In this document: in pieces, positions 47,366 through 64,000 of the stretch
Layout of the letters: every line of letters starts with the position of its first letter
Numbering within the stretch: position 1 is the stretch's first letter
Assembly: GCA_963782055.1 (NCBI GenBank)
Contig: CAWAIF010000002.1
Span: forward strand, 160,001 to 224,000
Reading direction: 5' to 3'
Origin: an uncultured delta proteobacterium
Lineage (GTDB): Bacteria; Myxococcota_A; Polyangia; Polyangiales; Polyangiaceae
DNA: 64,000 nt
Translations under genes and position numbers: made by a program
Notes under the pieces: generated by a model
Databases searched by the model: none
What the model was told of the DNA's origin: nothing
The model's input: the letters and a program-made list of their open reading frames with translations, nothing else

Positions 47366-48754
47366 GTGATGATGCGCAGGGTCCTCATCATCGATGACGA
47401 CGAGAGTCTGTGCGAGCTGCTCGCCAGCGGCCTGGCCTCGCGCGGGTTCGACGCGTCCTTCCGGACCGCGCCGTCGGCGGCTCTCGATGCGCTCGCCGCC
47501 GACCACTACGACGCCGTCGTCACCGACCTGCGGATGCGCGAGATGAGCGGCATCGAGCTCTGCGATCGCGTCCTGCTCACCCACCCAGACGTGCCGGTGG
47601 TCCTCATCACGGCCCACGGGGACGTCGACGCCGCGGTGGCCGCGCTCCGCGTCCGCGCCTTCGACTTCCTCTCCAAACCCGTGGACGTGGAGCTGCTCGC
47701 CTCCGTGCTCGCGCGCGCCACCAGCCGCCCCCCGGCGCACCAGGCGCGGCGGCGCTCCCGCCGCAACAAGGGGGCTGACCCGGCCGACGGGCTCATCGGC
47801 GAGAGTGCGCCGATGCAGGCGCTCCGCGCCCTGATGGATCGCGTGGCTCGGGTGGACACCTCGGTGCTCATCGGCGGCGAGACGGGCACGGGCAAGGAGC
47901 TGGTCGCCCGGGGCCTCCACGCGCTGAGCGCGCGCAGCGACGGTCCCTTCGTCGCCATCAACTGCGCGGCCCTGCCGGAGAGCCTGCTCGAGGCGGAGCT
48001 GTTCGGCTACGCCAAGGGCGCCTTCACCGACGCGCGGACGGACCGCTCCGGCCTGTTCGAGCGGGCGCGAGGCGGCACCTTGCTGCTGGACGAGATCGGC
48101 GAGATGCAGCTCGGCCTGCAGCCCAAGCTCCTGCGCGTGCTGCAGGAGCGGGTCGTTCGCCCCGTGGGCAGCGACCGCGAGATCCCCACCGACGTGCGCG
48201 TCATCGCGTCCACCAACCGGGATCTGCAGACCGCCGTCGCGGCGAAGCAGTTCCGCGAGGACCTGTTCTACCGCATCGACGTCATCGAGATCCGCGTCCC
48301 GCCGCTGCGCGAGCGCGGATGCGACGCACTGCTGCTCGCCGCGCACTTCGTCCGGGAGTTCTCCCGCGGGACCGGCAAGTCCATCGAAGGCCTCACGCCC
48401 GGCGCGAGCGAGAAGATCGCCTCGTACACGTGGCCCGGGAACGTCCGGGAGCTGCGCAACTGCATCGAGCGGGCCGTCGCCCTCACCACGGCCGACCGCA
48501 TCGGCCTGGACGACTTCCCCGATCGGGTGCGGCGCGTGCCCTCGCTCCCCGAGACCTCCGAGCTCAGCGAGCTCCTCCCGCTGGTAGAGGTGGAGCACCG
48601 GTACATCCAGCGTGTGCTCGACGCGGCGCACGGCAACAAGAGCCTCGCCGCGCGGATCCTCGGGGTGGACCGCCGCACGCTCTATCGCAGGGAGGAGCAC
48701 CGGCACCTCACCAAGGCGGACGAGCCGGTGGACCTGACGCGCCCCCGGAAATGA
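47366..48754 (+). CDS. Sigma54-dependent response regulator (NtrC family: REC-AAA+-HTH)
   Basis: [47 protein letters not shown], Fis-type HTH. Confidence 0.95.
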
Positions 48755-48824
48755 TTTCGGACGTGTGGCGCTTTTGCACGCAGGTCTCGCCATCCGCGGG
48801 CCGCAAGCTGGCGGAAAGGTGAGA

Positions 48825-48840
48825 GGGCATGAGGGTTGCA
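48825..48840 (+). promoter_or_regulatory. Putative sigma54 promoter P2 (hybrid kinase-gvp operon)
   Basis: GGGCATGAGGGTTGCA = GG-N10-GC matching TGGCACG-N4-TTGCW; in-frame ATG at 48854. Confidence 0.7.
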
Positions 48841-48853
48841 GCCCCGTGGCCGA

Positions 48854-50851
48854 ATGCCCATCCTCGCGCAGCGGTCCGGCACGCGCGTTCTCGTCGTGGC
48901 AAGCGATCCCGCCAAGGCCGACCTCCTTCGCCGCTGCGTGAGAGACGGCAGCGGGGGAACGTTCGAGGCCTGGCAGGTCGACACGACCGCGGGAACCGCC
49001 GAGGCGGCCCAGCAGGCGCGCGCCCACGTGCTGCTGCTGGACCCGGCGAGTGACCGGACCGCCCTCGCGACTGTCCGCGCGAGCGTTCCGGAGCTGCCCA
49101 TCGTGGTGCTCGTCGCGCCCCGCGACTTCGCCTCCAGCGTGCGGTCGCTGCGGACCGACGCCGACGACGTGCTCTTCGAGTGGGAGCTGGAGCCGCACCT
49201 CTTGGTGTGGCGCCTCCGCCTGGCTATCGAGCGTCACGAATCGGAGCGCAAGCTGACCCAGGCTCGCGACCTCGCGGAGAACGCCAACCGTCACAAGTCG
49301 GAGTTCGTCTCGCAGGTGAGCCACGACATCCGCACGCCGATGAACACGGTGCTGGGGATGGCAGAGCTCCTCGGCGAGACCCACCTGACCAAGAAGCAGC
49401 AGCAGTACGTCCAGACGCTGCGGCGCGCCGGCGATCACCTCCTCGCCCTCCTGGACGACGTGCTCGACCTCGCCCGGATCGAGGCGGGACAGATGGAGAT
49501 CGAGGCGACGAGCTTCCGGCTGGGCGAGGTGCTGGAGACGGCGCTCGACCTCGTCCGGGTGCAGGCGACGCGCAAGGGGCTGGCGCTGGAGGTCGACGTC
49601 TCGCCCGACATCCCCGACGCCTTCCGCGGCGATCCGCGCCGGCTGCGGCAGATCCTGGTAAACCTCCTCGCGAACGCGGTGAAGTTCACCGAGCGCGGGT
49701 ATGTGCGCCTCGCGGTGACCGCCGACGGCGGGACGCCCGGCGCCACGGCCCTCCACTTCAGCGTGCAGGACACCGGCATCGGCATCCCCGCCGAGAAGGC
49801 GGACGACATCTTCACGAGCTTCGTGCAGGGAGGAAGGAGCTTCGAGAAGCGCTACGGCGGCGTCGGGCTGGGCCTCGACATCGCGCGTCGCCTCGCGGAG
49901 CTGATGGGAGGCCGCATCTGGGTCGAGAGCACCGGCGGGGGCTCGACGTTCCACGTCAGCCTCGCGCTGCCCACCGAGAGGGGGAGGCCGCGACCCTCAT
50001 TCCCGGACGCCGCCGAGCAGGAGACGGCCCTCTCCGGGCCGGGCGGTCGCCGCCTGAAGGTGCTCCTGGTGGACGACTCGGAGGACAACCGGATGCTGAT
50101 CGCAGCGTACCTGGCCCCCGCCAACGTGGCGCTGGACTACGTGAGCGACGGACCGGAGGCGGTGCGGCGCGTGGAGACCACCGCCTACGACATCGTCCTG
50201 ATGGACCTGCAGCTGCCCACGATGAACGGCTTCGCCGCGACACGTGAGCTCCACGCCGCGGAGCGAGCGCTCGGCCGGCCGCGCACGCCCGTGATCGCGC
50301 TGAGCGCGCACGCGCTTGCCGACACCGTCCTGCGCGCGCAAGAGGCGGGCTGCGCGATGCACCTGGCGAAGCCGATCCGCAAGCGAACGCTGATCGCAGC
50401 GCTCGCTCGGGTCGCCCACGCCATCACCGCCGACCCGGCCGAGGACGTGCCAGTACGCCGCGTGCCCGACGACGCCCTGCGCCTCTTCGGCCGGTTCCTG
50501 CAGAACCGGAGGCGCGATCTCACCGACATCGAGAAGGCGCTCACGAGCGGCGACTTCGACGCGGTGCGGACCCTGGGGCACAACATGCAAGGCACCTGCG
50601 CGGCCTACGGCGTCCCGGAGCTGGGTGAGCTCGGCACGCGGCTGGAGGCGGCGGCCGACCGGCACGACACGCGAGACCTGCGGCGCATGACGGGCGAGCT
50701 CGCCGCGTGCATCGAGCGCGTGACCGCCCAGCACGAGGCCGGGCGCATCGAGGCGTCTCCGCGTCGGACGCGGTCCGGGCTTCGACCGTCCCACCCCGGC
50801 ACGAAGGACGCGGCGCCACCGCACGGCCGCAGAAGGAACGGCGCATCATGA
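48854..50851 (+). CDS. Hybrid histidine kinase: degenerate REC-HisKA-HATPase-REC-Hpt
   Basis: SHDIRTPMN, NLLANAVKFT, DTGIG, GVGLGL, LMDLQLP, Hpt GHNMQG. Confidence 0.9.
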   Translation: MPILAQRSGTRVLVVASDPAKADLLRRCVRDGSGGTFEAWQVDTTAGTAEAAQQARAHVLLLDPASDRTALATVRASVPELPIVVLVAPRDFASSVRSLRTDADDVLFEWELEPHLLVWRLRLAIERHESERKLTQARDLAENANRHKSEFVSQVSHDIRTPMNTVLGMAELLGETHLTKKQQQYVQTLRRAGDHLLALLDDVLDLARIEAGQMEIEATSFRLGEVLETALDLVRVQATRKGLALEVDVSPDIPDAFRGDPRRLRQILVNLLANAVKFTERGYVRLAVTADGGTPGATALHFSVQDTGIGIPAEKADDIFTSFVQGGRSFEKRYGGVGLGLDIARRLAELMGGRIWVESTGGGSTFHVSLALPTERGRPRPSFPDAAEQETALSGPGGRRLKVLLVDDSEDNRMLIAAYLAPANVALDYVSDGPEAVRRVETTAYDIVLMDLQLPTMNGFAATRELHAAERALGRPRTPVIALSAHALADTVLRAQEAGCAMHLAKPIRKRTLIAALARVAHAITADPAEDVPVRRVPDDALRLFGRFLQNRRRDLTDIEKALTSGDFDAVRTLGHNMQGTCAAYGVPELGELGTRLEAAADRHDTRDLRRMTGELAACIERVTAQHEAGRIEASPRRTRSGLRPSHPGTKDAAPPHGRRRNGAS

Positions 50852-51231
50852 GCATGACGGTGCGCTCCTCCGATCGCAACGGCGGCGCCAGCCTGGTCGA
50901 TGTCCTCGACCGTGTCCTCGACAAGGGCCTCGTCGTCGCCGGCGACATTCGCGTCGCCCTGGCGGACGTGGAGCTGTTGACCATCCGCATCCGGCTGATG
51001 ATCTGCTCCATCGACAAGGCGCAGCAGGTGGGCCTGGACTGGTGGCGCCACGATCCGCACTTCGCGCCCGCTGGCAACAAGCTGCTCGGCGGCGACGCCG
51101 CGCTCCGGAAGCAGGTCGCCGCCCTCCAGCGACAGATCGCCAAGCTGGAGAAGGCCGCGACGTCCACCCGCCGCACCCGCTCATCGTCACCGAAGACATC
51201 GAAGAGAAAGAAGACGCGCCATGCCGATTGA
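50848..51231 (+). CDS. gvpJ: Gas vesicle protein, GvpA/J family (GvpJ-like)
   Basis: [39 protein letters not shown], coiled coil, basic tail. Confidence 0.85.
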
Positions 51232-51538
51232 ACGCAGCTCCGGCGGAACCAACCTGATCGACGTGCTGGACCGCGTCCTCGACAAGGGCATCGTGATCGA
51301 TGCCTGGCTGCGCGTACAGCTCGTGGGCATCGATCTGCTGACCGTGGAGGCCCGCGTCGTGGTCGCTTCGATCGACACGTACCTGAAGTACTCCGAGGCC
51401 GTCGGCGGGGCGGGCGCCGCCGCGCGGCCCACGCTTCCCGCCGCCCAGGTGCCGGAGTCCCTGCCGGCGCCGAAGCCGAAGCCGCGGACGCGTGCTCGGG
51501 CGAAGACCACCACGAAGACGAGGGCGCGCAGGACGTGA
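51221..51538 (+). CDS. gvpA: Gas vesicle major structural protein with basic C-terminal extension
   Basis: [51 protein letters not shown]. Confidence 0.93.
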
Positions 51539-53682
51539 GCAGCCCCGCGGTCGTCGCCTCCGCCACCAGGAACGGCGCGCCCCCCACGACTCATCGGGGC
51601 GAGGCCAGCGGCCGCATGCTGCTCTTGCAGTCGCTGCTCGCGGCGGAGACGGTGACCGAGGCGGCGCGTCGCGTCGTCGAGTACCTCCACACACACGTCG
51701 GCGCGAGGCGGGTGGTCTACCTCGGGACCCACGACGCCGATGCCCGCCTGCAGGGGCTCGCCTCACGCGGCGTGGACGAAGCGCACGCGCTGGCGCTGGA
51801 GGTCGACCTGGACGTCGGCACTCACCCGCTGCTGCGCACGCTCTCGCCGCGGAGTCCCACTCCGGTCGAGATCCCCGACCTCGCGCGGCTCTTTCCGGGT
51901 GGTCGGCTGATGGTGACGCCGGTGCCGCTTCCCCTGACGCGGGTGGGGGAGCCCCTCGCGCTCCTGCTCACCGAGCCGCGCGCCGCGCTGGAGGAGGAGC
52001 TCGGCTGGGTGGCCTGCGTGCTGGGGCCGGAGCTGGCGCGCGCTCGCCGGCACGAGGATCTGAGCCGCGCCTACGCCGGAGCCCAGCGCGACGTGGCCCT
52101 GATGCGGGGGGTCCTCGATGCGGTGCCCGAGCCGGTGCTGCTTGCCGACGGCGACAGCAACGTGCTGCTCGCCAACTCTGACGCCGCGCTCTACTTCGCC
52201 TCGCCGGAGGAGGGGAGCAGCGAGGGGAGGCGGCGCGCGCTCGCGCTCAACCGGATGCTCCTCTCCGCCGTGCTCGCCAGCACCCGCAGCGCGGGGACGC
52301 AGATCCGGGAGGTGGCCGTCGTCGACCCGAGCGACGGGTCCGACCGCCTCTTCGAGCTGATCGCCGCGCACACCTCCACCGTGGCCGGCGAGGGCACCGT
52401 CGCGGTGCTCCGTAACGTGTCCGATCTCCACTCCGCGATGCGCGAGATCACCGAGAACTACCGTCGCCTGCGCGTGGCCGAGGCCGACGTCCGCGCCGAG
52501 CGCGACAGGCTGGACCTGATCATCGACTCGGTGGCCGACCCGATCATCGTCACCGGCATGCGGGGTGTGCCGCTGCGGATGAACCGCCCGGCGGAGGGGC
52601 TCCTCACGGCGGACCCCGACGCCTCCCCCGCGCGCGCGCAGCGCGTGCGCACCAACGACGCGCGCCTCTCCTCGCACGTGTCCAACGTCTTCTTCACGCC
52701 GGAGCCGCGCGTGCGCGGCGACCTCGACCTGCTCGACCCCGCCGGCATGCGCGACCTGCCGATGGAGGCGGTGAGCCGCAAGCTGATGTCGGCGCACGGG
52801 GAGGTGGCGGCGGTGGTCACCATCCTGCACGACCGCACCGAGGCGGAGGAGAAGCAGCGGCTCAACGAGCAGCTCGAGCAGGCGACGGCGCAGCTGGAGA
52901 AGAAGGTGCAGGAGGCGACGATCGAGCTCGTGAAGCAGAACGAGCTCCTGCGCCGCCAGCACATCCAGCTCGAGCAGGCCTCGAGCCTGAAGAGCCAGTT
53001 CCTCGCGACGATGTCGCACGAGTTCCGCACGCCGCTGAACGCCATCCTCGGCTACACGAGCATGCTGCTCGACAACATTTACGGGGCCCCGCCGCCGCGG
53101 CAGATCCGCTGCCTCGAGCGCGTGGACTCCAACGCCCGGCACCTGCTGGCGATCATCAACGACATCCTGGACATCTCCCGCATCGAGGCGGGCAGCATGC
53201 CGATCCACAGGTCCACGTTCGATGTCGGGAAGCTCTTGACGGAGGTCCTCTCCGAGGTGCGCCCGCTCGTGGCGCGCGACCGCGTCAAGGTGGAGCTCGC
53301 CGTCTCGTCGCGCCTGCCACGCCTGCGGACCGACCGCGCCAAGGTGAAGCAGATCCTGGTCAACCTGCTCTCCAACGCCTTCAAGTTCACCGCGGCCGGG
53401 ACCGTCGCCATCTCCGCGCGCCTCTCACCGCGAGGTCGGTGGTTGCACGTCGCCGTCGCCGACACCGGCGTGGGCGTCGCGCCGGAGGACGCCGAGGTGA
53501 TCTTCCAGGACTTCCGGCAAGCGGACAACTCCACCACCCGGCGCTTCGGCGGCACCGGGCTCGGCCTCGCCATCTCCCGGCGCCTGGCGGAGGTCCTCGG
53601 CGGCCGCATCAAGCTGGTCAGCGAGCTCGGGCAGGGCTCCACCTTCACCCTGATCCTCCCCCGGCGGCGGAGGTCGTCGTGA
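51535..53682 (+). CDS. Cytoplasmic sensor histidine kinase (GAF-like + two PAS-like domains)
   Basis: Two LD(A/S)VxxP(V/I) PAS starts, [33 protein letters not shown]; no TM helix seen. Confidence 0.9.
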
Positions 53683-54116
53683 AACGAGCGGCAGCGAGCG
53701 GCACCTCCCGGCGGCGTCGGGGTCGGTGCGTGCTGGTGGTCGACGACTTCGACGACAACCGCGAGATGTACGCCGAGTACCTCCAGCAGGCGGGGTACCA
53801 CGTGATCCAGGCCGCCGACGGGAAGTCCGCCGTTCAGCTCGCCACCGAGGCGCGCCCGGACCTCGTCGTCATGGACCTCTCCCTCCCGGTGATGGACGGC
53901 TGGGAGGCGACGCGCCTGTTGAAGGCCGACCCACGCACTCGCCGCATTCCGGTCATCGCCCTGACGGGGCACGCGCTCGCGGGGCACTCGCAGGGGGCGC
54001 GGGACGCGGGGTGCGACGAGTTTCTCACCAAACCATGCCTGCCGCGCGCCCTGGTCGACGCGGTGGAGCGGATGCTCGCGCCTCGCGGACGTGGGCGGAA
54101 AGGAGCGTCAGCATGA
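53679..54116 (+). CDS. Single-domain response regulator (DivK/CheY-like)
   Basis: VVDD, VMDLSLPVMDGWEA, ALTGHA, TKP. GTGA overlap. Confidence 0.9.
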   Translation: MKRAAASGTSRRRRGRCVLVVDDFDDNREMYAEYLQQAGYHVIQAADGKSAVQLATEARPDLVVMDLSLPVMDGWEATRLLKADPRTRRIPVIALTGHALAGHSQGARDAGCDEFLTKPCLPRALVDAVERMLAPRGRGRKGASA

Positions 54117-54985
54117 GCAGGAGAACGGCGCGCACCCCGGAGAAGGCCAAGGCGGTGCTGCCCGTCCGTCCCAGGGCGGAGTCGTGGCCCGAGGAAGCGA
54201 CGACGGCGAAGCACCGCGTGCTAAAAGAGCGCGGCGAAGCGCGCGGGCGCTACGTGTACTGCGTCATCGGCTCGACCGGCCACAAGACCTTCGGTCCCAT
54301 CGGCGTCGGCGTGGAGCCGGCGGAGGTCCACACCGTGCGCTTCAAGGACATCGCCGCCGTCACGTCGGACACGCCCATCGAGGTCCACGAGCCGACACGC
54401 CACAACATCCTGGCCCACGAGCGCGTGAACGAGGCGGTCATGCGGGAGCACACCGTCATCCCCATGTCCTTCGGCACCGTCTTCAAGACCGACGACGATA
54501 TCCTGGAGCTGCTCCGCTCCGCGTACGACGCGTTCAAGGACGTGCTCGTCAAGATGGAGGACAAGCTGGAGTACGGCCTCAAGGTGCTCTGGGACCGCGA
54601 CCAGATCGTCCACGCGCTGGAGCTGGAGGACGAGGACATCCGGCGCCTGCGCGCCGAGATCCTCTCCCAGAACGGGTCGACGTACTTCGCGCGCATGCAG
54701 TACGGGCGGCTCGTCGAGGCGGCCCTCGAGACGCGGTGCGAGCGCTACGTCCGCGAGATCTTCGACGAGCTCCGGCCGGTCTCCATCGCCTCGCGCGTGA
54801 ACAAGCCCATCGGTGACAGGATGATCATGAACGCCGCGTTCCTGGTGAGCCGCGAGCGGGAGGCGAAGTTCGACGCCCGCGTCAAGGCGCTCGGCGCCGC
54901 CTACGACAAGCTGACCTTCCGCTACACGGGACCCTGGCCGCCCTACAACTTCGTCAACATCCGGCTGAAGCTGGAGAAGGCGTGA
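54113..54985 (+). CDS. gvpF: Gas vesicle protein GvpF (GvpL/F family)
   Basis: YVYCVI, HERV, VIPMSFGTVF, EYGLK, NAAFLV, TGPWPPYNFV. Confidence 0.88.
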   Translation: MSRRTARTPEKAKAVLPVRPRAESWPEEATTAKHRVLKERGEARGRYVYCVIGSTGHKTFGPIGVGVEPAEVHTVRFKDIAAVTSDTPIEVHEPTRHNILAHERVNEAVMREHTVIPMSFGTVFKTDDDILELLRSAYDAFKDVLVKMEDKLEYGLKVLWDRDQIVHALELEDEDIRRLRAEILSQNGSTYFARMQYGRLVEAALETRCERYVREIFDELRPVSIASRVNKPIGDRMIMNAAFLVSREREAKFDARVKALGAAYDKLTFRYTGPWPPYNFVNIRLKLEKA

Positions 54986-55320
54986 GCATGCTCGTCATCG
55001 ACAGGATGCTGGCCTCCGGTCTGGGGTTCGTGATGCGCCGCATCGCCGAGGCCGCCGACGCTGCGTCCGACCCGACCACCGCCTTGCACGCGGGGTTGCT
55101 GGACGCGCAGGCGAGCCTGGAGCGCAACGAGATCACCGAGGCGGAGTACGAAGCCATCGAGGCGGATCTGCTGGCCGAGCTGCACGAGCGACGGCGAAGC
55201 GAGCGGCCGGCCGTGCTCTCCCACGTGACCGTGGACGTGATCGAGACCCCGCCGGAAGTCGGCGAGAAAGGAGCGCACCATGCCCCGCCGAAGCGCAAGG
55301 CCCGCAAGCGCCGCGTCTGA
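54982..55320 (+). CDS. gvpG: Gas vesicle protein GvpG
   Basis: GLGFVMRRI...LERNEITEAEYEAIEADLLAEL pattern; position after gvpF. Confidence 0.75.
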   Translation: MSMLVIDRMLASGLGFVMRRIAEAADAASDPTTALHAGLLDAQASLERNEITEAEYEAIEADLLAELHERRRSERPAVLSHVTVDVIETPPEVGEKGAHHAPPKRKARKRRV

Positions 55321-56065
55321 CGCGGACGTCGCGACCTACCTCTACTGCGTGGTGGAGGCCCCGCGCATCGACCTCGCGGGCGTCCCGCGCGGCCTGCCCG
55401 GCGCAGGAAAGCCCCGCGCGGAGCCGCTGAAGCCCGGACGGTGGATGATCGTGTGCGACGCGCCGCTCGCCCGCTACGGGCCGGAGGCCATCGAGCGCGC
55501 CACGAGCGAGCTCCGGTGGGTGGCGACCGCGGCGGTCAAGCACTCCGAGGTGGTCTCCTTCTTCGCGCGCGATCTCCCCGTCGTGCCGATGAAGATGTTC
55601 ACACTCTTCTCCGACGACCGGCGCGCCACGCGGGCGCTGCTACGCAAGGGACAATCCATCGACCGTACCTTGAAGCACATTCGCGGCTGCGCCGAATGGG
55701 GCGTCCACATCCTCCCGGCGCCGCGTCGTGCTGCCGCGCGTCGCGCCCCGGCGCCGCGCAGCGGCCGCGCCTTCCTCGTTGCGAAGCGGGAGAAGCTCGC
55801 CGGGGCGCGTGACGATCGCGCTCACCAGCGCGCCGAGGCCCTGCGCGCGCTGGGGGATCTGGAGTCGCTGTCGCGCGCCGCGCAGATGCGCGAGGCGCAG
55901 GCCGCGACGGGACCGGTGGTGGACGGCGTCCTGCTGGTGCCGAACGCGGCGAAGGCGCGGCTCGCCGCGCGCTGCGACCGATGGCGCGAGCAGCTCCAGA
56001 AGCGGGGCCTGTCCCTCCGCGTGACCGGTCCCTGGCCCTGCTACCACTTCGTGGGGGCACGATGA
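55280..56065 (+). CDS. gvpL: Gas vesicle protein, GvpL/F family
   Basis: YLYCVV, HSEVV, VVPMKMFTLF, EWGV, SGRAFL, TGPWPCYHFV. Confidence 0.82.
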   Translation: MPRRSARPASAASDADVATYLYCVVEAPRIDLAGVPRGLPGAGKPRAEPLKPGRWMIVCDAPLARYGPEAIERATSELRWVATAAVKHSEVVSFFARDLPVVPMKMFTLFSDDRRATRALLRKGQSIDRTLKHIRGCAEWGVHILPAPRRAAARRAPAPRSGRAFLVAKREKLAGARDDRAHQRAEALRALGDLESLSRAAQMREAQAATGPVVDGVLLVPNAAKARLAARCDRWREQLQKRGLSLRVTGPWPCYHFVGAR

Positions 56066-56274
56066 GCCCGGCGCGTGCCGCGCCACGCCGGCGGAGCGCC
56101 GCGGACCTCTCGCTCGCCCGCCAGGGGACCCTCCTCGACCTGCTGGATCACGTCCTCGACAAGGGCGTCGTGCTGCAGGGCGATCTGGTGATCTCCGTCG
56201 CCGACGTCGAGCTGGTCTACGTTCGCCTCTCGGCGCTGCTGTGCGGGATGTCATCGCTGGCGAGGAGGCGCTGA
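56062..56274 (+). CDS. Small GvpA-family accessory protein (GvpS/GvpM-like)
   Basis: TLLDLLDHVLDKGVVLQGDLVISVADVELVYVRLSALL. Confidence 0.85.
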   Translation: MSPARAAPRRRSAADLSLARQGTLLDLLDHVLDKGVVLQGDLVISVADVELVYVRLSALLCGMSSLARRR

Positions 56275-56897
56275 TGCTGGCCCTGGTCGCGCTCCTCCGC
56301 GCCGACGACGCCGAGCTCGCGCGCGCCCTCGGGTTCGGCGCGACGGTCGTGCGCGCGGCGTGCGTGGTGCACCGCACGGTTCGCCGCCCCGACGGGCCGA
56401 CGGCCGCGGCGGCGATCCGTCACGACCGTGCCGTGCGGCGGCTCATGTCGCGGGCCACCGCGGTGCTGCCGATGCGCCTCGGCGTCACCGTGAAGGACGC
56501 CGGCGCTCTCCCGGCGCTCCTCGGCTCCCATGACGGCGCCGTCGCCGCGCGCCTGGCGGCGGTGGAGGGCCGCGTGCAGATGACCCTCCGCGTCTACCGG
56601 GGCCCCGGCGCCGCGAGGCGCGTCACCGGAGGTCGGGGGACCCGGTACCTGGCGCGTCGCGGCGCGGAGACCGCCTTCGTCGCGCGCGCGCGCCAGGAGC
56701 TCGGAGCTGCGGTCGCCGACGAGGTGATCGAGCACCACTCCATCGAGCCGCTGCTGGCGAGCGTGTATCACCTGGTGGACAGGGGGCGCGCCGCGGCGTA
56801 CCGCGCCGGTGTCCGCCGGGTCGCGCGCGCGCACCCGGAGGTGCGCGTGGCGGCCAGCGGTCCGTGGGCCCCGTACGCCTTCTGCGCCCTGGAGTGA
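56274..56897 (+). CDS. Third, shortened GvpL/F-family protein
   Basis: HDRAV, VLPMRLG, GTRYL, YHLV, SGPWAPYAF. TGATG overlap. Confidence 0.78.
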   Translation: MLALVALLRADDAELARALGFGATVVRAACVVHRTVRRPDGPTAAAAIRHDRAVRRLMSRATAVLPMRLGVTVKDAGALPALLGSHDGAVAARLAAVEGRVQMTLRVYRGPGAARRVTGGRGTRYLARRGAETAFVARARQELGAAVADEVIEHHSIEPLLASVYHLVDRGRAAAYRAGVRRVARAHPEVRVAASGPWAPYAFCALE

Positions 56898-56900
56898 CCG

Positions 56901-57254
56901 ATGGCGGCCCGGCAATCCACCCTCGTTCGCAAGGCCCGCAGGCGCGAGATCGACGCGCTGCGACACGAGGTCACGCGCAAGAAACGCGGCCGGCTGCGCA
57001 TCGACGCCGACCCCGGCGACGTGGAGCGCTCGCTGGCGCGCCTGGTGCTCTCGCTGGTAGAGCTGCTCCGCGAGCTGATGGAGCGCGAGGCCATCCGCCG
57101 GCTGGACGGCGGCGATCTCACGCCCGACGAGATCGAGGCGGTGGGGACGGCGCTGATGCGTCTGGAGAAGGCCGTGCGCACCCTCGCCCGGCGGTTCGGC
57201 CTCAAGCCGGGCGATCTCAACCTGGACCTCGGGCCGCTCGGCCGCCTGCGCTGA
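56901..57254 (+). CDS. gvpK: Gas vesicle protein GvpK
   Basis: LARLVLSLVELLRELMEREAIRR, LNLDLGPLGRL. Confidence 0.92.
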   Translation: MAARQSTLVRKARRREIDALRHEVTRKKRGRLRIDADPGDVERSLARLVLSLVELLRELMEREAIRRLDGGDLTPDEIEAVGTALMRLEKAVRTLARRFGLKPGDLNLDLGPLGRLR

Positions 57255-57278
57255 CCGTCGTGGCGTGCGCGCACCCGC

Positions 57279-57293
57279 GTAGCGGAATGTCAC
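57279..57293 (+). promoter_or_regulatory. Putative enhancer (UAS) GTAGC-GGAAT-GTCAC
   Basis: Same half-sites and orientation as the site at 47322-47336; 41 nt upstream of the P3 GG. Confidence 0.55.
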
Positions 57294-57333
57294 GATCCCC
57301 GCCCGTCGTCGGACTATCCCGGTCCGTGTAGCG

Positions 57334-57349
57334 AGGCACATGCATTGCA
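57334..57349 (+). promoter_or_regulatory. Putative sigma54 promoter P3 (kinase-globin gene)
   Basis: AGGCACATGCATTGCA = GGCAC-N5-TTGCA; ATG at 57365. Confidence 0.75.
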
Positions 57350-57364
57350 GCGGTCTCTCCGTCC

Positions 57365-59665
57365 ATGGTCCCTGCCGAAGCGGGTGAAGGTGCCGCGTGG
57401 ACGCCGCCGTCGAGGATGGACGGCTTCGAGCTCGTCGAGCTGCTGGGCGAAGGCGGCATGGGCCGCGTCTACCTCGCGCGGGAGCGCTCGCTCGACAGGC
57501 TGGTGGCGATCAAGTTCATGACGGTCGCCCCGACCATGCCCGGCGCCCGCGCCCGCTTCCGGGCCGAGGCGCGCGCGCTCGCACGGCTGAATCACCCCAA
57601 CGTGGTCGGGGTCTATCGCTTCAACGAGGTGGAGGGCAGGCCGTACATCGCCTACGAGTACGTGCGCGGCAAGAGCCTGGACCGAATCGCCAAGCCGATC
57701 CGGTGGACGGCGAGCCTGGTCATCGCGGCGTCGGTCGCGCGGGGCCTCGCTGCCGTGCATCGCGCCGGCCTGCTGCACAGAGACATCAAGCCGGCCAACG
57801 TGATGGTGGCCGCGACGGGCGCGGTGAAGCTGGTCGACTTCGGCCTGGCGCGTCTCGCCGATGCGGAGGGGCGCTGGAGTCCCGACAGCGAGGAGTCTCC
57901 GGAGGCCGCGCTGGCGCTGTCCTTCGACGATCTGGTCGAGGCCGGGGCCCACGCCTCCGCCGTGGCCCGCGGGTCGGCCGTGTCGCGTGGCATGCGAACG
58001 GCCTCCAACCTCGCCGTCGGGACCCCGCGCTACTGGGCCCCGGAGCAGTGGCTGGGCGGGGAGGCCGACGCGAAGAGCGACGTCTACGCGCTGGGTCTGG
58101 TGATCTACGAGATGGTCACCGGGACGGCGCCGTTCGCCGATGTGGCCGGGGACGATCTGATGCACGCCGTGCTGGAGGTGGGTGTGCCTCGCGTCCAGCA
58201 CGACTCCGTCCCGGAGGCCTTCGGCGCGATCATCGACCGCTGCCTCCGGCGTGACCCGCGCGAGCGGTGGGACACCGCCACCGATCTCGCCCGCGCGCTC
58301 CTCCAGCTCCAGCGCGTCTTCGTGGCCGCGACGCCGGAGGCGCTCACCCGACCGTTGAACGACGAGGCCGCAATCGTCGCGGCGTCGTGGTCGCGCCTCC
58401 TGCCGTGGCGCGCGGCGCTGATCGCGCGCGTCTACCGCGAACTCTTCGCGGCGCACCCGGAAGTCCGCGCGCTCTTCCCCCTGGATCTCGCCGCGCAGCA
58501 GGCGAAGCTCACCCACGCCCTCGATCTCACGTTGCAGGGACTCCACGAGCCCGACGCCGTGGCGCCGATGCTCCGGGAGCTGGGCAGCCGTCACGTCGAC
58601 TACCACGTCGAGCCGCGCCACCTGGAGATGCTGGGCAAGGCATTGCTGGACGCCCTGCCCGTCTTCGACCGCAAGTGGGACGAGGCGACACGCCAGGCGT
58701 GGAAGCACGGCTACACCTTCATCGCCGCCACGATGTGCGCCGGGATGGCGAGTCACACCGAGCCAGTCGCCATTCCCCGCACGCCACCGCCCGCCGGCTC
58801 CCCGCATCCGGCGCCCCTCGCGGTGATGCCACCCGCGCAGTACGCCTCCGACGGCAACGTGGTCTATGCGGAGCTGGGAAAGGGACCGCCGGCGCTGGTC
58901 TTGTTGCCCGGTCGTGTCACGCACCTGGAGATGACCTGGTCGCACCCCGCGCCCGTCTGGCTCCTCGCCCAGCTCGCCGCGTTCTCCCGCGTCGTGCTCC
59001 TCGACCTGCGCGGCACCGGCATGGCCGATCGCATCCCGGACCCGACGGTGGAGGACGGCGTGCAGGACATTCTCTCCGTCATGGACGCCGCGCACATCGA
59101 CCGCGCGGTGCTCGTCGGCGCGGGCGACGCCGGGCCGATCGCCGTGTCGGCCGCCGCCGCGCACCCCGATCGAACCGCCGCGCTGGTGCTGGTCGGGTCG
59201 ACGCCGCGGCCCGCCTGGGCAGAAGACTTCCCCTTCGGGCGCACGAGGGCGGCGTTCGACGAGGCGTACAAGGAAGCCGCGGAGCACTGGGGGACGGCCT
59301 CCCACGTCGCGCGGGAGAACCCGGCGGCGGCGCGTGACAGGACCTTCTGCGAGTGGCTCGCCTCCTACCAGCGCATCGCCGCGGGCCGGCGCCGGGCGCT
59401 CGCGCTGCTGCGCGTCGCCGAGGAGCCCGACGTGCGCGCGCTGCTCCCGGCGGTGCAGGCGCCCACGCTGGTGCTTCACCGGGTCGGCGATCCGGTCTTC
59501 CCCGGGGCCGTCGGTCGCTTCATCGCCGAGCGCGTGCCGCACGGGCGGTACCTGGAGCTGCCCGGCAGCGACCACTGCATCTTCGCCGGTGACAGCGCCG
59601 AGCTCGCCCGCGCCATCGAGCGCTTCGTGGCCGGCCTCTCGGCCACGGCCCCCGCCGGATGCTGA
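57365..59665 (+). CDS. Ser/Thr kinase - globin - alpha/beta hydrolase-fold fusion protein
   Basis: Kinase: GEGGMG, VAIK, HRDIKPAN, DFG, GTPRYWAPE. Globin: VYRELF..HPEVRALF..QQAKL..LGSRHVDY..W. Hydrolase fold: DLRGTGMAD, PTLVLH, PGSDH. Confidence 0.88.
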   Translation: MVPAEAGEGAAWTPPSRMDGFELVELLGEGGMGRVYLARERSLDRLVAIKFMTVAPTMPGARARFRAEARALARLNHPNVVGVYRFNEVEGRPYIAYEYVRGKSLDRIAKPIRWTASLVIAASVARGLAAVHRAGLLHRDIKPANVMVAATGAVKLVDFGLARLADAEGRWSPDSEESPEAALALSFDDLVEAGAHASAVARGSAVSRGMRTASNLAVGTPRYWAPEQWLGGEADAKSDVYALGLVIYEMVTGTAPFADVAGDDLMHAVLEVGVPRVQHDSVPEAFGAIIDRCLRRDPRERWDTATDLARALLQLQRVFVAATPEALTRPLNDEAAIVAASWSRLLPWRAALIARVYRELFAAHPEVRALFPLDLAAQQAKLTHALDLTLQGLHEPDAVAPMLRELGSRHVDYHVEPRHLEMLGKALLDALPVFDRKWDEATRQAWKHGYTFIAATMCAGMASHTEPVAIPRTPPPAGSPHPAPLAVMPPAQYASDGNVVYAELGKGPPALVLLPGRVTHLEMTWSHPAPVWLLAQLAAFSRVVLLDLRGTGMADRIPDPTVEDGVQDILSVMDAAHIDRAVLVGAGDAGPIAVSAAAAHPDRTAALVLVGSTPRPAWAEDFPFGRTRAAFDEAYKEAAEHWGTASHVARENPAAARDRTFCEWLASYQRIAAGRRRALALLRVAEEPDVRALLPAVQAPTLVLHRVGDPVFPGAVGRFIAERVPHGRYLELPGSDHCIFAGDSAELARAIERFVAGLSATAPAGC

Positions 59666-59714
59666 GGCCGAGCTGGCGTCCCCTCGCCCCGGCCGATACT
59701 ATCCCTGAAGGGAT

Positions 59715-60122
59715 ATGTCTCGCCTCCGCTCGCCGCTCGCCGTCGTGCTCGTCGCATCGCTGCTTCTTCCCGTCGCCGCGCGCGCCGCGCCCCGCGTCCC
59801 GTACGTGGAGGGTACGCGAGTGCCGCCCGGCTACCACGTCACCTCACGCCCGCGCGTCGGGCTGGTGATCGTGGGGGGCATCCTGTGCCTCCTCTCTGCG
59901 CTGGGGGTAGGCGTCGGGGTGGACGGCGTCTCGCGCCGCGACGACACCGCCGAGGTAGCCGGGTTCGCCTTCGCCGGTCTCACCGCGGCGCCGGGGATTC
60001 CCCTGCTGATGGTGGGCCTGCTGAAGCCGAAGCACTACCTGGTCGCCGACCACGCGTGGCGCCTGCGCCTCGCCCCGGCGACCGCGGGTGTGCGGGGTGT
60101 GTCACTGACCTTGGAGTTCTAG
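59715..60122 (+). CDS. Hypothetical membrane/secreted protein
   Basis: Signal peptide, VPPGYH, two hydrophobic helices, C-terminal LTLEF. Confidence 0.6.
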   Translation: MSRLRSPLAVVLVASLLLPVAARAAPRVPYVEGTRVPPGYHVTSRPRVGLVIVGGILCLLSALGVGVGVDGVSRRDDTAEVAGFAFAGLTAAPGIPLLMVGLLKPKHYLVADHAWRLRLAPATAGVRGVSLTLEF

Positions 60123-60124
60123 CG

Positions 60125-60165
60125 CCTCACCCCCCCCGCCCCCTCTCCCTGCGGGGGAGAGGGAG
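60125..60165. repeat. REP-like hairpin CCTCACCCC...CCCTCTCCC-N5-GGGAGAGGG between convergent genes
   Basis: Perfect 9-bp inverted repeat at 60141-60149 / 60155-60163. Confidence 0.6.
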
Positions 60166-60180
60166 ACGGGAGCGCGATGG

Positions 60181-60543
60181 TCACCGGCGCGTGGTGTGGA
60201 GGCCGACGTGGTTTCCCTCCGTGTCGGCGACGATGGCGTACAGGCCCATCTCCCCGATGTCGGTCTTGGGAACGACGACCGAGCCGCCCGCGGTGGTCAC
60301 GCGGCCGAGGGCGGCGTCCAGCTCCGGCGCGTCGAGGTACACCACGCTCCCGGGCCCGGGAGCGCGACGCGGGTCGGCGACGAGCGCGCCGCTCACGTCG
60401 GCGTTGAGGCGCCGGGCGAAGATGGCGTGCGGGACGCCGGCGAAGTCCTCCCGCTTGAGGGACACGCCGAGGACCTTCTCGTAGAAGCGGGCGGCGCGGT
60501 CGATGTCGGCGACGGGGATCTCGAACCAGTTGATGACGCTCAT
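60181..60543 (-). CDS. VOC/glyoxalase-family protein
   Basis: AGGAG RBS, WFEIPVADIDRAARFY, GGSVVVPKTDI, DTEGNHVGL. Confidence 0.9.
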   Translation of the reverse strand: MSVINWFEIPVADIDRAARFYEKVLGVSLKREDFAGVPHAIFARRLNADVSGALVADPRRAPGPGSVVYLDAPELDAALGRVTTAGGSVVVPKTDIGEMGLYAIVADTEGNHVGLHTTRR

Positions 60544-60622: not shown

Positions 60623-61261
60623 GGTTTGTTTGGTCTCCACCACCGCGTGCTCGATGCGGTCGAAGCGCAGCGGCAGGGGCTCCCCGCTCTCGGCCTCGTG
60701 TCCGAGCAGCACGATCATCGTGCGCTCCATGGTGGCGCCGGCGAGGCGCACGCGCCGCCGCTCCAGCTCGCCGTGCGAGTTGCGGTAGCGCACGGCGAGG
60801 ACGCTGCCCTCGAACCACGCCGACTCCACCGCGCGACGCACCGCAGGAGGCGGCGCCAGCACCGGCACCCCCACGAACCGGAGCCTGTCCATGTGGCCGA
60901 GCAGCTCGCGCTGCGCGGACGTGCCGAGCGCCGCGCGCACCTTGTCGAGCGCGCGCTGCAGCGCCTCCGGGAACGGGAGCGATCGCATCTCCACCGCGTG
61001 CCGGACGAGGCTCGCCAGCACCGCCGCCTCGCGCGCGGTGAAGTTGACGGGCGGGAGCGCGTAGCTCTTGTCGAGCGCGTAGCCCCCGCCGCGTCCACGG
61101 TCCGCCTGCACGGGGAGCGCCGCGTCGCGCAGCGTGTCCAGGTCGCGGTAGATGGTGCGCACCGTGACCCCGAACCGCTCCGCGAGCATCTCGGCCGTGA
61201 CGCCGGTGCGCCGCCCGCGCAGGTACTCGGCGATGGCAAAGAGGCGCGCCTGTCGTCGCAC
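60620..61261 (-). CDS. YafY-type wHTH-WYL transcriptional regulator
   Basis: RLFAI, LAERFGVTVRTIYRDL, GRGGGY, LPPVNFT, degenerate WYL (ERRRV...RFDRI). Confidence 0.88.
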   Translation of the reverse strand: MRRQARLFAIAEYLRGRRTGVTAEMLAERFGVTVRTIYRDLDTLRDAALPVQADRGRGGGYALDKSYALPPVNFTAREAAVLASLVRHAVEMRSLPFPEALQRALDKVRAALGTSAQRELLGHMDRLRFVGVPVLAPPPAVRRAVESAWFEGSVLAVRYRNSHGELERRRVRLAGATMERTMIVLLGHEAESGEPLPLRFDRIEHAVVETKQT

Positions 61262-61423: not shown

Positions 61424-63052
61424 TCAGTAAACGGGCGGCTGCACCTTCAGCGAGAGCGGCGTGTTCGCCTGCGAGAAGACGTTGTCCAGCTCGCCGTCGA
61501 CGACGCGCATCGGGTCGTAGGCGTTCTCCCCCCAGGGCAGGTCGATGCGCATGTCGCCCAGCGCGGTCCTGTACGAGGGCTGCTTGCCGGACAGGAGCGC
61601 GAGCAGGAAGTCCGCCGTCGCCTCGCCGCCGCCCCACACGTACGAGGGCGATCCGTTGACCACGATCTCCAGGTTCCGGGAGCCGCCCGGCTTCATGCGC
61701 AGAAAGTCCTCGTGGTAGTAGTTGTACGAGAGGCAGCTGTTCACGAGCATGATCTGGTAGCGGTCGTTGAAGTTCTGCGGCCCGTACAGCGTCGGCTCCA
61801 GCGGCCCGTGGCCGAAGTGCGAGTGGCCGTTGTAGAGGAAGACGTCGCCGTACCAGAAGGCCTCCAGGTAGCGCCACTGGGCGTGCTGGCGCGCCTCGGG
61901 GGAGCCATCCTCGTAGCCGTAGAAGCTCCGCACCTCCACGGTGAGGTTCTTCGTCGTGCCGCCGTCGCTCACCACCACGGGCAGGTCCCAGTCGATCCAC
62001 CGCTCGGCGAGCTTGCTCATCACCTGCCGGCGCAGGTCGGCGATCTTCGCCTTGTCGTTGCCCACCTCCGGCGGGTAGCCCTTCTTGTCCAGCACCCAGC
62101 GGAACATGTCGTCGTAGGTGACGTTCTGCAGCTTCTGCCCGTCCACCCAGAAGTCGAGCAGCATGGTGAAGGGGTCCGTCTTCACCGGCCGGAAGTTGGG
62201 CTGGCCGTCCAGCATCCTGCGCAGGAAGCGCACCGCCTCCTGGCCGAGGATGTCGTCCGGGTCGTTCTCGTCGGTGTCGACGCCGGAGAAGGCGTACACG
62301 ACGAGGGTGGACCGGGAGTCGTCGTGCAGGGCGAAGAGGCGGTCGTACTCCGGCGAGAAGTCGTGGTTGGGGGTGTTCGCCGCGCCCAGCTTGGCGGTCA
62401 CCGGGGCGAACCAGCGGCCGGCCTCGCTCGGGCCGACGGCGCCGGGGTGCTTCGCAAGCTTCGCCTGCTCCGACTGCACGCGCGCCGCCTCGTCCTGCAC
62501 CAGCGTCTCGCAGGACGGGAGCGATGGCTGGAAGTGGTACCAGAGGGAGTCCACGTCGGTGGTGGTGTCGTCGGAGCAGTCCTGGATCAGCTCGCCCGGG
62601 TGGGCCGCGTAGTCATCCGCCAGCATCACGAAGTCGATCGCGCTGCGGTTGGCGAGCGTCCTGGTGACCACGGCCTTGTCGACGTAGTCGAAGGAGACCT
62701 TGAGCACCTGCCGCGTGACGGCCTGGGTGTCGGGGTCGAGGACGTCCACCAGGGCGCGCGTCCACTTGGAGGGGTCCAGGTTGGACTGCGCGCCGCGGTC
62801 GTCGAAGGCGACCTTGGTGTCGCGCAGCGCTCCGAGCGCCGACTTGATCTGCCGCGCGATGGCGAGCTGGATGTCGGAGTCGGAGGTGCCCGGGTCGACG
62901 TAGACGTACGAGGAGAAGGAAACCGGGCGCTCCACCGAGGTGGTGCCGGTGAGGTCCGACGACCCGGACGCGCCGTCGGACGGCGGGGCAGAGCAGGCGG
63001 CGGCGCCCGCGGCGAGGACAAGCACCCAGACCCAGCGTGACAGCGGCGACAT
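61424..63052 (-). CDS. Hypothetical lipoprotein with possible His/Cys peptidase-like C-terminal domain
   Basis: GGAGG RBS, lipobox AAAC, VFLYNGHS and MLVNSC motifs. Confidence 0.7.
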   Translation of the reverse strand: MSPLSRWVWVLVLAAGAAACSAPPSDGASGSSDLTGTTSVERPVSFSSYVYVDPGTSDSDIQLAIARQIKSALGALRDTKVAFDDRGAQSNLDPSKWTRALVDVLDPDTQAVTRQVLKVSFDYVDKAVVTRTLANRSAIDFVMLADDYAAHPGELIQDCSDDTTTDVDSLWYHFQPSLPSCETLVQDEAARVQSEQAKLAKHPGAVGPSEAGRWFAPVTAKLGAANTPNHDFSPEYDRLFALHDDSRSTLVVYAFSGVDTDENDPDDILGQEAVRFLRRMLDGQPNFRPVKTDPFTMLLDFWVDGQKLQNVTYDDMFRWVLDKKGYPPEVGNDKAKIADLRRQVMSKLAERWIDWDLPVVVSDGGTTKNLTVEVRSFYGYEDGSPEARQHAQWRYLEAFWYGDVFLYNGHSHFGHGPLEPTLYGPQNFNDRYQIMLVNSCLSYNYYHEDFLRMKPGGSRNLEIVVNGSPSYVWGGGEATADFLLALLSGKQPSYRTALGDMRIDLPWGENAYDPMRVVDGELDNVFSQANTPLSLKVQPPVY

Positions 63053-63185: not shown

Positions 63186-64000
63186 GTGGCCGACACACGC
63201 CGTCTCGGGGGTATCCCGAGCACCATCCTCCGGATCGCGGCCGCCGACACGGCGGTCGCGCCCGCGTCCGGCGGCCACGCCGACACGGCGGTCGCGGTCG
63301 CCCCCCGCGTCTCGGAGGCCGAGCCCCCGCCCGCGGTGGGGGGCCCGCGGTACGAGTCGGTAGGCAGGCTGGGCGAGGGCGGAATGGGGCAGGTGGAGCA
63401 CGCCCGCGACCGCGACCTGCTGCGCGACGTGGCGGTGAAGCTCCTGCGTCCCGAGCTGCGCGGCGACGCGCGCATGCTGGAGCAGTTCCTCTGGGAGGCG
63501 CGGGTCACCGCGTACCTCGACCACCCCAACATCGTCCCGGTGCACGATCTCGGCACGACGCCCGAAGGGGACCTCTTTTTCACCATGAAGCTGGTGCGGG
63601 GCAAGACCCTGGAGGGCGCGCTGGAGGGCGTCCGCGGCGCCGGCGAGAAGGCGGAGGGCGGGCTGACGCTCCCGCGCCGGCTGCGCCTCTTTCTGCAGCT
63701 CTGTCACGCCATCTCCTTCGCCCACGCCCGCGGCGTGCTCCACCGCGATCTGAAGCCGGCCAACATCATGCTCGGCGAGTACGGCGAGCTGATCGTCACC
63801 GACTGGGGCCTCGCGCTGCCGCTGCCCGGGCCGGCCGGAGAGGCGCTCACCGACCTGGCGCCGTCCTGGCTCCTCGCCGAGAGCGCCGGGACCCCCGCGT
63901 ACATGTCGCCGGAGCAGGTGCGAGGCGAGCACCTGGACGCGCGCTCCGACGTGTACACGCTGGGCGTCATCCTCCACGACCTCGTGGCGCTGCGACCTGC
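63186..64000 (+). CDS. Ser/Thr protein kinase (3' truncated by window edge; not in the ORF track)
   Basis: GEGGMG at 63372, VAVK, HPNIVPVHD, HRDLKPAN, DWG, GTPAYMSPEQ. Upstream in-frame stop at 63176. Confidence 0.9.
   Translation, partial: MADTRRLGGIPSTILRIAAADTAVAPASGGHADTAVAVAPRVSEAEPPPAVGGPRYESVGRLGEGGMGQVEHARDRDLLRDVAVKLLRPELRGDARMLEQFLWEARVTAYLDHPNIVPVHDLGTTPEGDLFFTMKLVRGKTLEGALEGVRGAGEKAEGGLTLPRRLRLFLQLCHAISFAHARGVLHRDLKPANIMLGEYGELIVTDWGLALPLPGPAGEALTDLAPSWLLAESAGTPAYMSPEQVRGEHLDARSDVYTLGVILHDLVALRP

Follow-up and report, generated by a model that had tools for sequence, protein, structure and literature searches.

A conserved kinase–globin fusion of Polyangia as a candidate heme-based sensor with a predicted link to sigma-54 activators

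Why a globin should be fused behind an intact Hanks-type Ser/Thr kinase is the question raised by a gene near the end of a 64,000-nucleotide stretch (the window) of contig CAWAIF010000002.1 (positions 160,001 to 224,000, forward strand; assembly GCA_963782055.1) from an uncultured delta proteobacterium of the Polyangiaceae. The gene is a single unbroken open reading frame (ORF) at 57365–59665 on the plus strand, encoding a protein of 766 residues (P0001). The original prediction, made from the letters alone, divided the ORF into a kinase, a globin and an α/β hydrolase without a transmembrane (TM) segment. Pfam recovered the same three domains in that order (Pkinase, Globin and Abhydrolase_1), and the highest Kyte-Doolittle mean over 19 residues is 1.52, in keeping with a protein lacking a TM segment. 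An AlphaFold2 model from a 20-sequence alignment contains three folded domains with a mean predicted local distance difference test score (pLDDT) of 81.8 and a predicted template modeling score (pTM) of 0.51; the low-confidence parts are an activation-loop insert and both interdomain linkers (pLDDT < 50 in the linkers). Judged from the conservation of the heme pocket across 114 family members and from gene context, the most likely reading of this protein is that of a heme- or gas-regulated kinase.

The kinase domain (57425–58300, plus strand; Pfam Pkinase, E 1.7e-46) contains the Gly loop, the VAIK Lys, the αC Glu and the HRDxKxxN, DFG and APE motifs, with Lys50, Glu68, HRD138–140, Lys142, Asn145 and DFG158 as the corresponding positions. 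Lys50, Glu68, His138, Asp140, Lys142, Asn145 and Asp158 are invariant in two sets of relatives (62/62 and 40/40 sequences). By these residues the domain is predicted to be an active Hanks-type Ser/Thr kinase, as had been proposed. The activation loop carries an insert of ~55 residues, modeled at low confidence, and a threonine, Thr213 (codon 58001), which is matched by Thr at the equivalent position in 43 of 54 sequences. The top Foldseek match of the model is PknB (E 7.2e-18).

The middle domain (58355–58750, plus strand) matches Pfam Globin over residues 355–457 (E 1e-11; 45.8 bits against a cut-off of 22) and PRK13289 over residues 348–457. Its 33 sequence matches in the PDB (best E 1.2e-14) are led by F-family globins, namely 3wfw, 3s1i, 3ubc, Vitreoscilla hemoglobin (Hb) and flavohemoglobin, with whose pocket residues Tyr357, Phe371, Gln378 and His410 align. 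In standard globin numbering, as assigned here, these are TyrB10 (codon 58433), PheCD1 (58475), GlnE7 (58496) and the proximal HisF8 (58592), and all four had been named correctly from the letters, including the codon of His410. No Protoglobin match was found in the protein by Pfam at E ≤ 0.01, none of the 33 PDB matches is named as a sensor globin, and the Pfam matches include no FAD/NAD reductase domain, which sets the protein apart from flavohemoglobins. Among 114 non-redundant family members, TyrB10 is present in 111, PheCD1 in 108, GlnE7 in 102 and HisF8 in 111 (the exceptions for HisF8 being two gaps and one Gln). The alignments thus identify an F-family globin of the 3/3 fold, C-terminal to an intact kinase, that likely binds heme.

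This degree of pocket conservation would also fit a globin that reports heme supply, redox state or bound lipid, with an apo/holo or ferric/ferrous change switching the kinase in the manner of the eukaryotic heme-regulated inhibitor kinase (HRI). Such a role gains from the lack of a fused reductase to hold the iron ferrous and from the lipid binding by flavohemoglobin pockets described in the accessible text of PMC3820574. The distal pair TyrB10 and GlnE7, kept in ~90% of members or more, points instead to a diatomic ligand, and the partner genes near family loci encode single-domain globins, not heme-uptake proteins; we regard this alternative as unlikely.

The family was delineated by successive searches. 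A globin search of 61 genomes (the query genome and 60 relatives) returned three further kinase–globin genes, one with a hydrolase. A profile built from these three sequences and the query had matches at E ≤ 1e-80 in 38 of 401 genomes examined from the order, and at least 25 genomes in five families (the query genome and the three seeds included) contain a match spanning both kinase and globin, a lower bound since four candidates were scored per genome. Profiles were needed, as the globin region used as a single query returned nothing beyond the protein itself and four flavohemoglobin-like proteins. A profile search of the protein database gave 130 matches, of which 120 were listed; named members among the matches listed are Sorangium spp., Sandaracinus amylolyticus, Nannocystaceae, Polyangia and Myxococcales, and the automated database names of family members give domains only. 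The named matches, all myxobacterial, make a member of the Polyangia the most likely source of the window. Kinase and globin occur together in 40 of 142 new representatives at 50% identity, a set from which multi-kinase and multi-globin matches were excluded. Pooling gave 121 kinase–globin proteins, or 114 after collapse at 95% globin identity, of which 76 carry the hydrolase. The identical domain order recurs across many other genomes and metagenomes, which rules out an assembly artefact as the origin of the fusion, a concern raised with the original prediction. The rows for L060 (frameshifted), L074 and L077 were excluded from A4, and those for L060, L074, L075 and L077 from A5.

The initial three-domain description holds for the query protein, and requires revision for the family, in which the kinase–globin pair is the conserved core and the hydrolase an optional add-on. 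The hydrolase is missing in 38 of the 114 proteins (some of these truncated), and the third module may be a hydrolase, a cyclic nucleotide monophosphate (cNMP)-binding plus aminotransferase-V region, an NTPase, or nothing. This variation beside a constant kinase–globin pair fits a sensor joined to its output. In a quick unrooted tree of 61 rows, the fused globins form one clade (Shimodaira–Hasegawa-like approximate likelihood ratio test support 97), apart from stand-alone globins and flavohemoglobins, and share a single origin. The nearest relatives of the kinase are myxobacterial kinase–nSTAND1–FGE proteins: in a kinase tree (143 rows, also quick and unrooted) 53 other kinases, mostly nSTAND1–FGE fusions, split off with a support of 98. 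Globin-less kinase–hydrolases branch at three points among the globin-bearing kinases; with the root placed outside, this pattern would suggest losses. Searches of six other genomes from the same genus (84–98% complete) did not find the fusion, and its distribution is therefore patchy.

Several other globin architectures were seen. Loci L074, L075 and L077 encode a variant of ~1400 residues consisting of a kinase, a globin, two cNMP-binding domains and a class V aminotransferase. Kinases fused independently to a C-terminal globin are encoded at L024:7337–9853 (minus strand) and L025:3708–7001 (plus strand), with the builds kinase–2Fe-2S ferredoxin (Fer2)–(cyclase-like)–globin and kinase–leucine-rich repeat (LRR)–globin; the globins of these Fer2 and LRR fusions fall outside the fused-globin clade. 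Four very long proteins (P0126, P0132, P0136 and P0208) contain 8–14 tandem F-type globin domains.

A fused globin could alternatively serve as an effector or bodyguard, acting as a tethered nitric oxide (NO) dioxygenase or as a store of O2. It would then have no control over the kinase, or would itself be regulated by phosphorylation. F-family globins act as NO dioxygenases in most cases according to the accessible parts of PMC3820574, the globin sensors described in those of PMC7475203 are S-family proteins whose globin is N-terminal, and the linkers in the AlphaFold model are flexible. An electron-donor domain is missing, however, and the 114 proteins share a short kinase–globin linker and a fixed order (kinase-then-globin order being a requirement for entry into the set of 121). 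In addition, a stand-alone globin gene lies beside 5 of 30 family loci, so that there would be no need for a second copy of the enzyme. Taken together, an effector role seems improbable.

The third domain is an α/β hydrolase fold of the LipJ type (58823–59647, plus strand; NCBIfam NF058673, residues 487–761, E 2.4e-43, with PDB alignments; Pfam Abhydrolase_1, residues 509–740, E 2.7e-13). The predicted fold is thus confirmed, and Asp709 (codon 59489) and His737 (codon 59573) are retained; the loss of the nucleophile had been overlooked. The nucleophile position is occupied by Gly587 (codon 59123) in the context G-A-G-D-A-G, and there is no G-x-S-x-G elbow. Among the 76 family members with a hydrolase, this position is Ser in 10 and Gly in 56, compared to Ser in 99 of 119 close hydrolase relatives without a kinase or globin, while Asp and His are retained in 64/76 and 65/76. 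An active esterase output was rejected on these grounds. Because the nucleophile is missing, the domain is likely a catalytically dead pseudo-enzyme, and likely acts as a second module for ligand binding or as a scaffold. Among free proteins, its closest relatives are hydrolase–cyclase and hydrolase–helix-turn-helix (HTH) proteins.

Retention of Asp and His raises the possibility that the main input comes through the hydrolase, which despite its missing nucleophile could be a receptor for an ester, lactone or lipid signal, with the globin only modulating or dimerizing. In pairwise comparisons, the hydrolase has a ratio of nonsynonymous to synonymous substitution (dN/dS) close to that of the globin and below that of the activation-loop insert (a rough estimate, with dS biased by GC content), and kinase–hydrolases without a globin occur. 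These globin-less forms, however, mostly keep the Ser (3/4), and the hydrolase is absent or replaced by other modules in the third of the family described above. We consider it rather doubtful that the hydrolase is the main input.

The region upstream of the kinase–globin gene contains predicted regulatory sites. A predicted sigma-54 promoter (AGGCAC-N5-TTGCA, a −24/−12 element at 57334–57349, plus strand) ends 15 nucleotides 5′ of the ATG, and no sigma-70-like site was found within 57150–60300. Further upstream, the palindrome GTGCGCGCAC (57265–57274), a word common to related globin loci, is predicted to be an upstream activator site (enhancer) at which a sigma-54 activator binds. The same palindrome with a −24/−12 element lies upstream of stand-alone globins in L021 and L076, with variants in L060, and it precedes the target globins in 5 of 6 held-out loci, three of which have a clear −24/−12 match. 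The combined enhancer and promoter pattern, which was chosen after the site had been seen, occurs once in the window and in none of 100 shuffles. A looser pattern has three matches in the 7.58-Mb genome, two of them at its only two globin-domain genes, and further relaxation brings in a gene whose product looks like a universal stress protein (labeled by eye). A scan of all GTDB genomes with the promoter pattern returned scattered taxa among the matches listed, which were read as mostly due to chance, and was not used.

The second globin gene of the query genome (L078:7117–7599, equivalent to G000:C3:4383143–4383535, minus strand) carries both the enhancer and the sigma-54 motif, and its product clusters, on a long branch, with the fused globins. 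A similar globin without the proximal His is also found in genome G004. The gene divergent from the second globin encodes a membrane protein without a Pfam match, presumably a nickel/cobalt transporter by resemblance.

A sigma-54 activator gene of the FHA or FHA-like type is located within 2 kb of the kinase–globin gene in 12 of 30 family loci (10 of 23 genome loci and 2 of 7 metagenome loci, several with short flanks), compared to a background of 12 of the 174 kinases of the query genome. The activator–kinase layouts are divergent, tandem or convergent, the activators come from three sequence groups, and a clear FHA domain is present in 5 of 9 partner activators scanned. A reverse search with clade A, the clade of activators linked to the motif, found a globin gene within 1.5 kb in 12 of the 16 best non-seed matches, compared to 1 of the next 10, and this sole case (L107/L126) is another complete locus with a kinase–globin–hydrolase, a globin and an activator. 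Wider cuts around clade A genes show that a small globin gene overlaps the activator end and that another stand-alone globin is present, with kinases encoded separately at several loci. Split versions, with kinase, globin and activator as separate genes, are found at L112, L113, L118 and L120. The occurrence of both split and fused forms links the globin, the kinase and the activator to a common pathway, with the proviso that the loci, being kin, are not independent.

Globins of ~130 residues are encoded directly 3′ of FHA-like sigma-54 activators at L113–L116, L118–L120, L123 and L125. Their start codons mostly overlap the activator stop, and the globins form one clade (support 99); they are possibly a kinase-free or split form of the same sensor.

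From the observed architecture, residues, conservation, neighborhoods and promoter motif, we infer a cytoplasmic kinase that is switched by NO or O2 at the globin heme and whose phospho-Thr signal drives an FHA sigma-54 activator, a scheme that we judge about as probable as its negation. Heme b would be held by His410, with TyrB10 and GlnE7 forming the distal pocket. A change of ligand would displace helices of the globin or a dimer contact, thereby altering autophosphorylation of the long activation loop (Thr213). The phosphorylated kinase would then bind or phosphorylate the FHA activator, which in turn would bind GTGCGCGCAC and fire sigma-54 promoters, including that of the kinase gene itself, as feedback. 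In relatives, the activator may also turn on the stand-alone, NO-scavenging globin and other genes. NO is preferred over O2 as the ligand because the commonest partner gene encodes an F-family single-domain globin. The broader proposal, that Polyangia possess an NO/O2-sensing pathway of their own in which an F-family globin sensor within a Ser/Thr kinase signals through a phospho-Thr/FHA relay to sigma-54 and a dead hydrolase supplies a second input, is held with a little less assurance, somewhat short of an even chance.

A number of observations weigh against the proposed gas-sensing relay. The AlphaFold model places the domains relative to one another at low confidence (pTM and linker scores as above), and therefore shows no structural path from the heme to the kinase. 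The second globin of the query genome lacks the proximal His. Adjacency of FHA activators and kinases is a general myxobacterial pattern; 18 of the 30 family loci, as well as the query locus, have no adjacent activator, and 5 of the 12 activator-bearing loci come from one family, so that related loci are not independent. The FHA match in clade A activators is weak (2 of 5 matched; best E 0.0026, below the cut-off). The only clade A activator of the query genome (L079:7192–8400, equivalent to G000:C3:6952245–6953398) is missing ~60 residues, Walker B among them, and carries a frameshift in the assembly, and the genome encodes ~40 other sigma-54 activators. Clade A activators are spread broadly (89 of 401 genomes), the motif precedes many diverse non-globin genes, and its count in 191 family genomes (23) shows no excess over a backwards control (~30). 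Only the position of the motif before start codons, not its raw count, was taken as informative: 17 of the 23 matches lie within 80 nucleotides of an ATG opening a frame of at least 80 residues, compared to 23.6% of 3000 random positions. Because of the breadth of clade A and of the genes downstream of the motif, the regulon is not gas-specific; the GTGCGCGCAC site is likely a real clade A enhancer, judged from these positions, that is not specific to globins.

The apparently broken clade A activator adjoins DUF262-like and transposase-like genes (labeled by eye), and the gene downstream of it has a sigma-54-like promoter of its own.

The immediate neighborhood suggests a further reading, in which the gene was recruited for oxygen control of an upstream gas-vesicle cluster or is an orphan without an activator. 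This cluster (50846–57254, plus strand) comprises three genes of the Gas_vesicle family, three GvpL/F genes, GvpG and GvpK. The kinase–globin gene starts 110 nucleotides after gvpK on the same strand, gvpK and the fusion were both not found in the six other genomes of the genus, and the cognate type of activator appears broken, as described above. On the other hand, the gene has its own predicted promoter, its kinase and heme residues are all intact, and no gas-vesicle family occurs among 66 neighbor proteins of the 20 family loci scanned, so a conserved gas-vesicle link was dismissed. Recruitment to gas-vesicle control, or orphan status, is accordingly very unlikely.

Genes for a PAS histidine kinase and a receiver lie between those of the gas-vesicle cluster, which comes after genes for a hybrid kinase and for a sigma-54 response regulator (47366–50851). 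Downstream of the kinase–globin gene lie a glyoxalase-family gene (60184–60543) and a WYL/HTH regulator (60623–61261), both on the minus strand, a gene for a likely lipoprotein of 542 residues without a Pfam match (61424–63052, minus strand), and a second Ser/Thr kinase gene that runs past the window end (63186–64000, plus strand).

If the broader proposal of a Polyangia NO/O2-sensing pathway is correct, it would contain the first globin-gated Hanks kinase and would functionally replace NorR/FixL-type systems. A conserved family joining an F-family globin to such a kinase would represent a new sensor class in which the enzyme branch of globins (the F family, treated as NO scavengers) has been turned into a sensor. 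Few inputs are known for the hundreds of myxobacterial Ser/Thr kinases, of which the query genome alone has 174 ORFs. Oxygen sensing in myxobacteria is stated to be an open question in the accessible portion of PMC6194562. The Ser/Thr kinase–globin family was not described in the accessible full-text literature searched (including PMC8717448, PMC6194562, PMC7694542 and PMC3631397), a scope that leaves subscription reviews and supplements aside, where a passing mention is possible. The family is real and conserved and would be a novel form of heme-based sensor. It offers a soluble protein together with a candidate ligand, a partner activator and its binding site, and a target gene, in genera that are in culture (Sorangium, Sandaracinus), and therefore the whole chain is testable.

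Comparison to known systems places the protein near several of them. Globin-coupled sensors, as presented in the accessible text of PMC7475203 and PMC3287990, have S-family, N-terminal globins with C-terminal methyl-accepting chemotaxis protein, kinase, cyclase or regulatory outputs, in agreement with the statement in the original prediction that sensor globins are usually N-terminal. Like HemAT and the histidine kinases and diguanylate cyclases of that class, the query is a soluble one-component protein with a 3/3 globin fused to a signaling enzyme; it differs in that its globin is of the F family and follows the output, which is a Hanks kinase. By analogy, it would work like a globin-coupled sensor without being a member of the S-family class. 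With the Hell's Gate globin (3s1i), a globin–Roadblock fusion (3wfw), Vitreoscilla Hb and Cgb it shares TyrB10, PheCD1, GlnE7 and HisF8 (E values of 1e-14 to 1e-4 to the closest solved F-family sequences), whereas flavohemoglobins have the reductase that it lacks and belong, with the stand-alone globins, outside the fused-globin clade. The kinase resembles PknB-type kinases with FHA partners in fold, RD motif, activation-loop Thr and, in many loci, an FHA or FHA-like neighbor, but has a cytoplasmic globin as sensor in place of TM and PASTA regions (the PASTA-kinase model NF033483 scores 225.8 against a cut-off of 450). The third domain matches the N-terminal part of LipJ (Rv1900c), a hydrolase–adenylate cyclase, whereas most family members have lost the Ser nucleophile and the query has no class III cyclase domain (LipJ equivalog score 148.5 bits against a cut-off of 800). 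HRI is likewise a heme-controlled Ser/Thr kinase, as proposed here, but is not known to contain a globin, unlike this family. The sigma-54 activators NorR and FhpR, according to the accessible sections of PMC3820574, govern flavohemoglobin in response to NO, and the predicted logic here is similar, with NO sensed and a sigma-54 activator inducing an NO-scavenging globin. NorR senses NO through non-heme iron in its own domain, whereas here a separate heme kinase would act through a phospho-Thr relay; with this difference, the NorR/FhpR–flavohemoglobin circuit appears to be the closest in logic to the proposed pathway.

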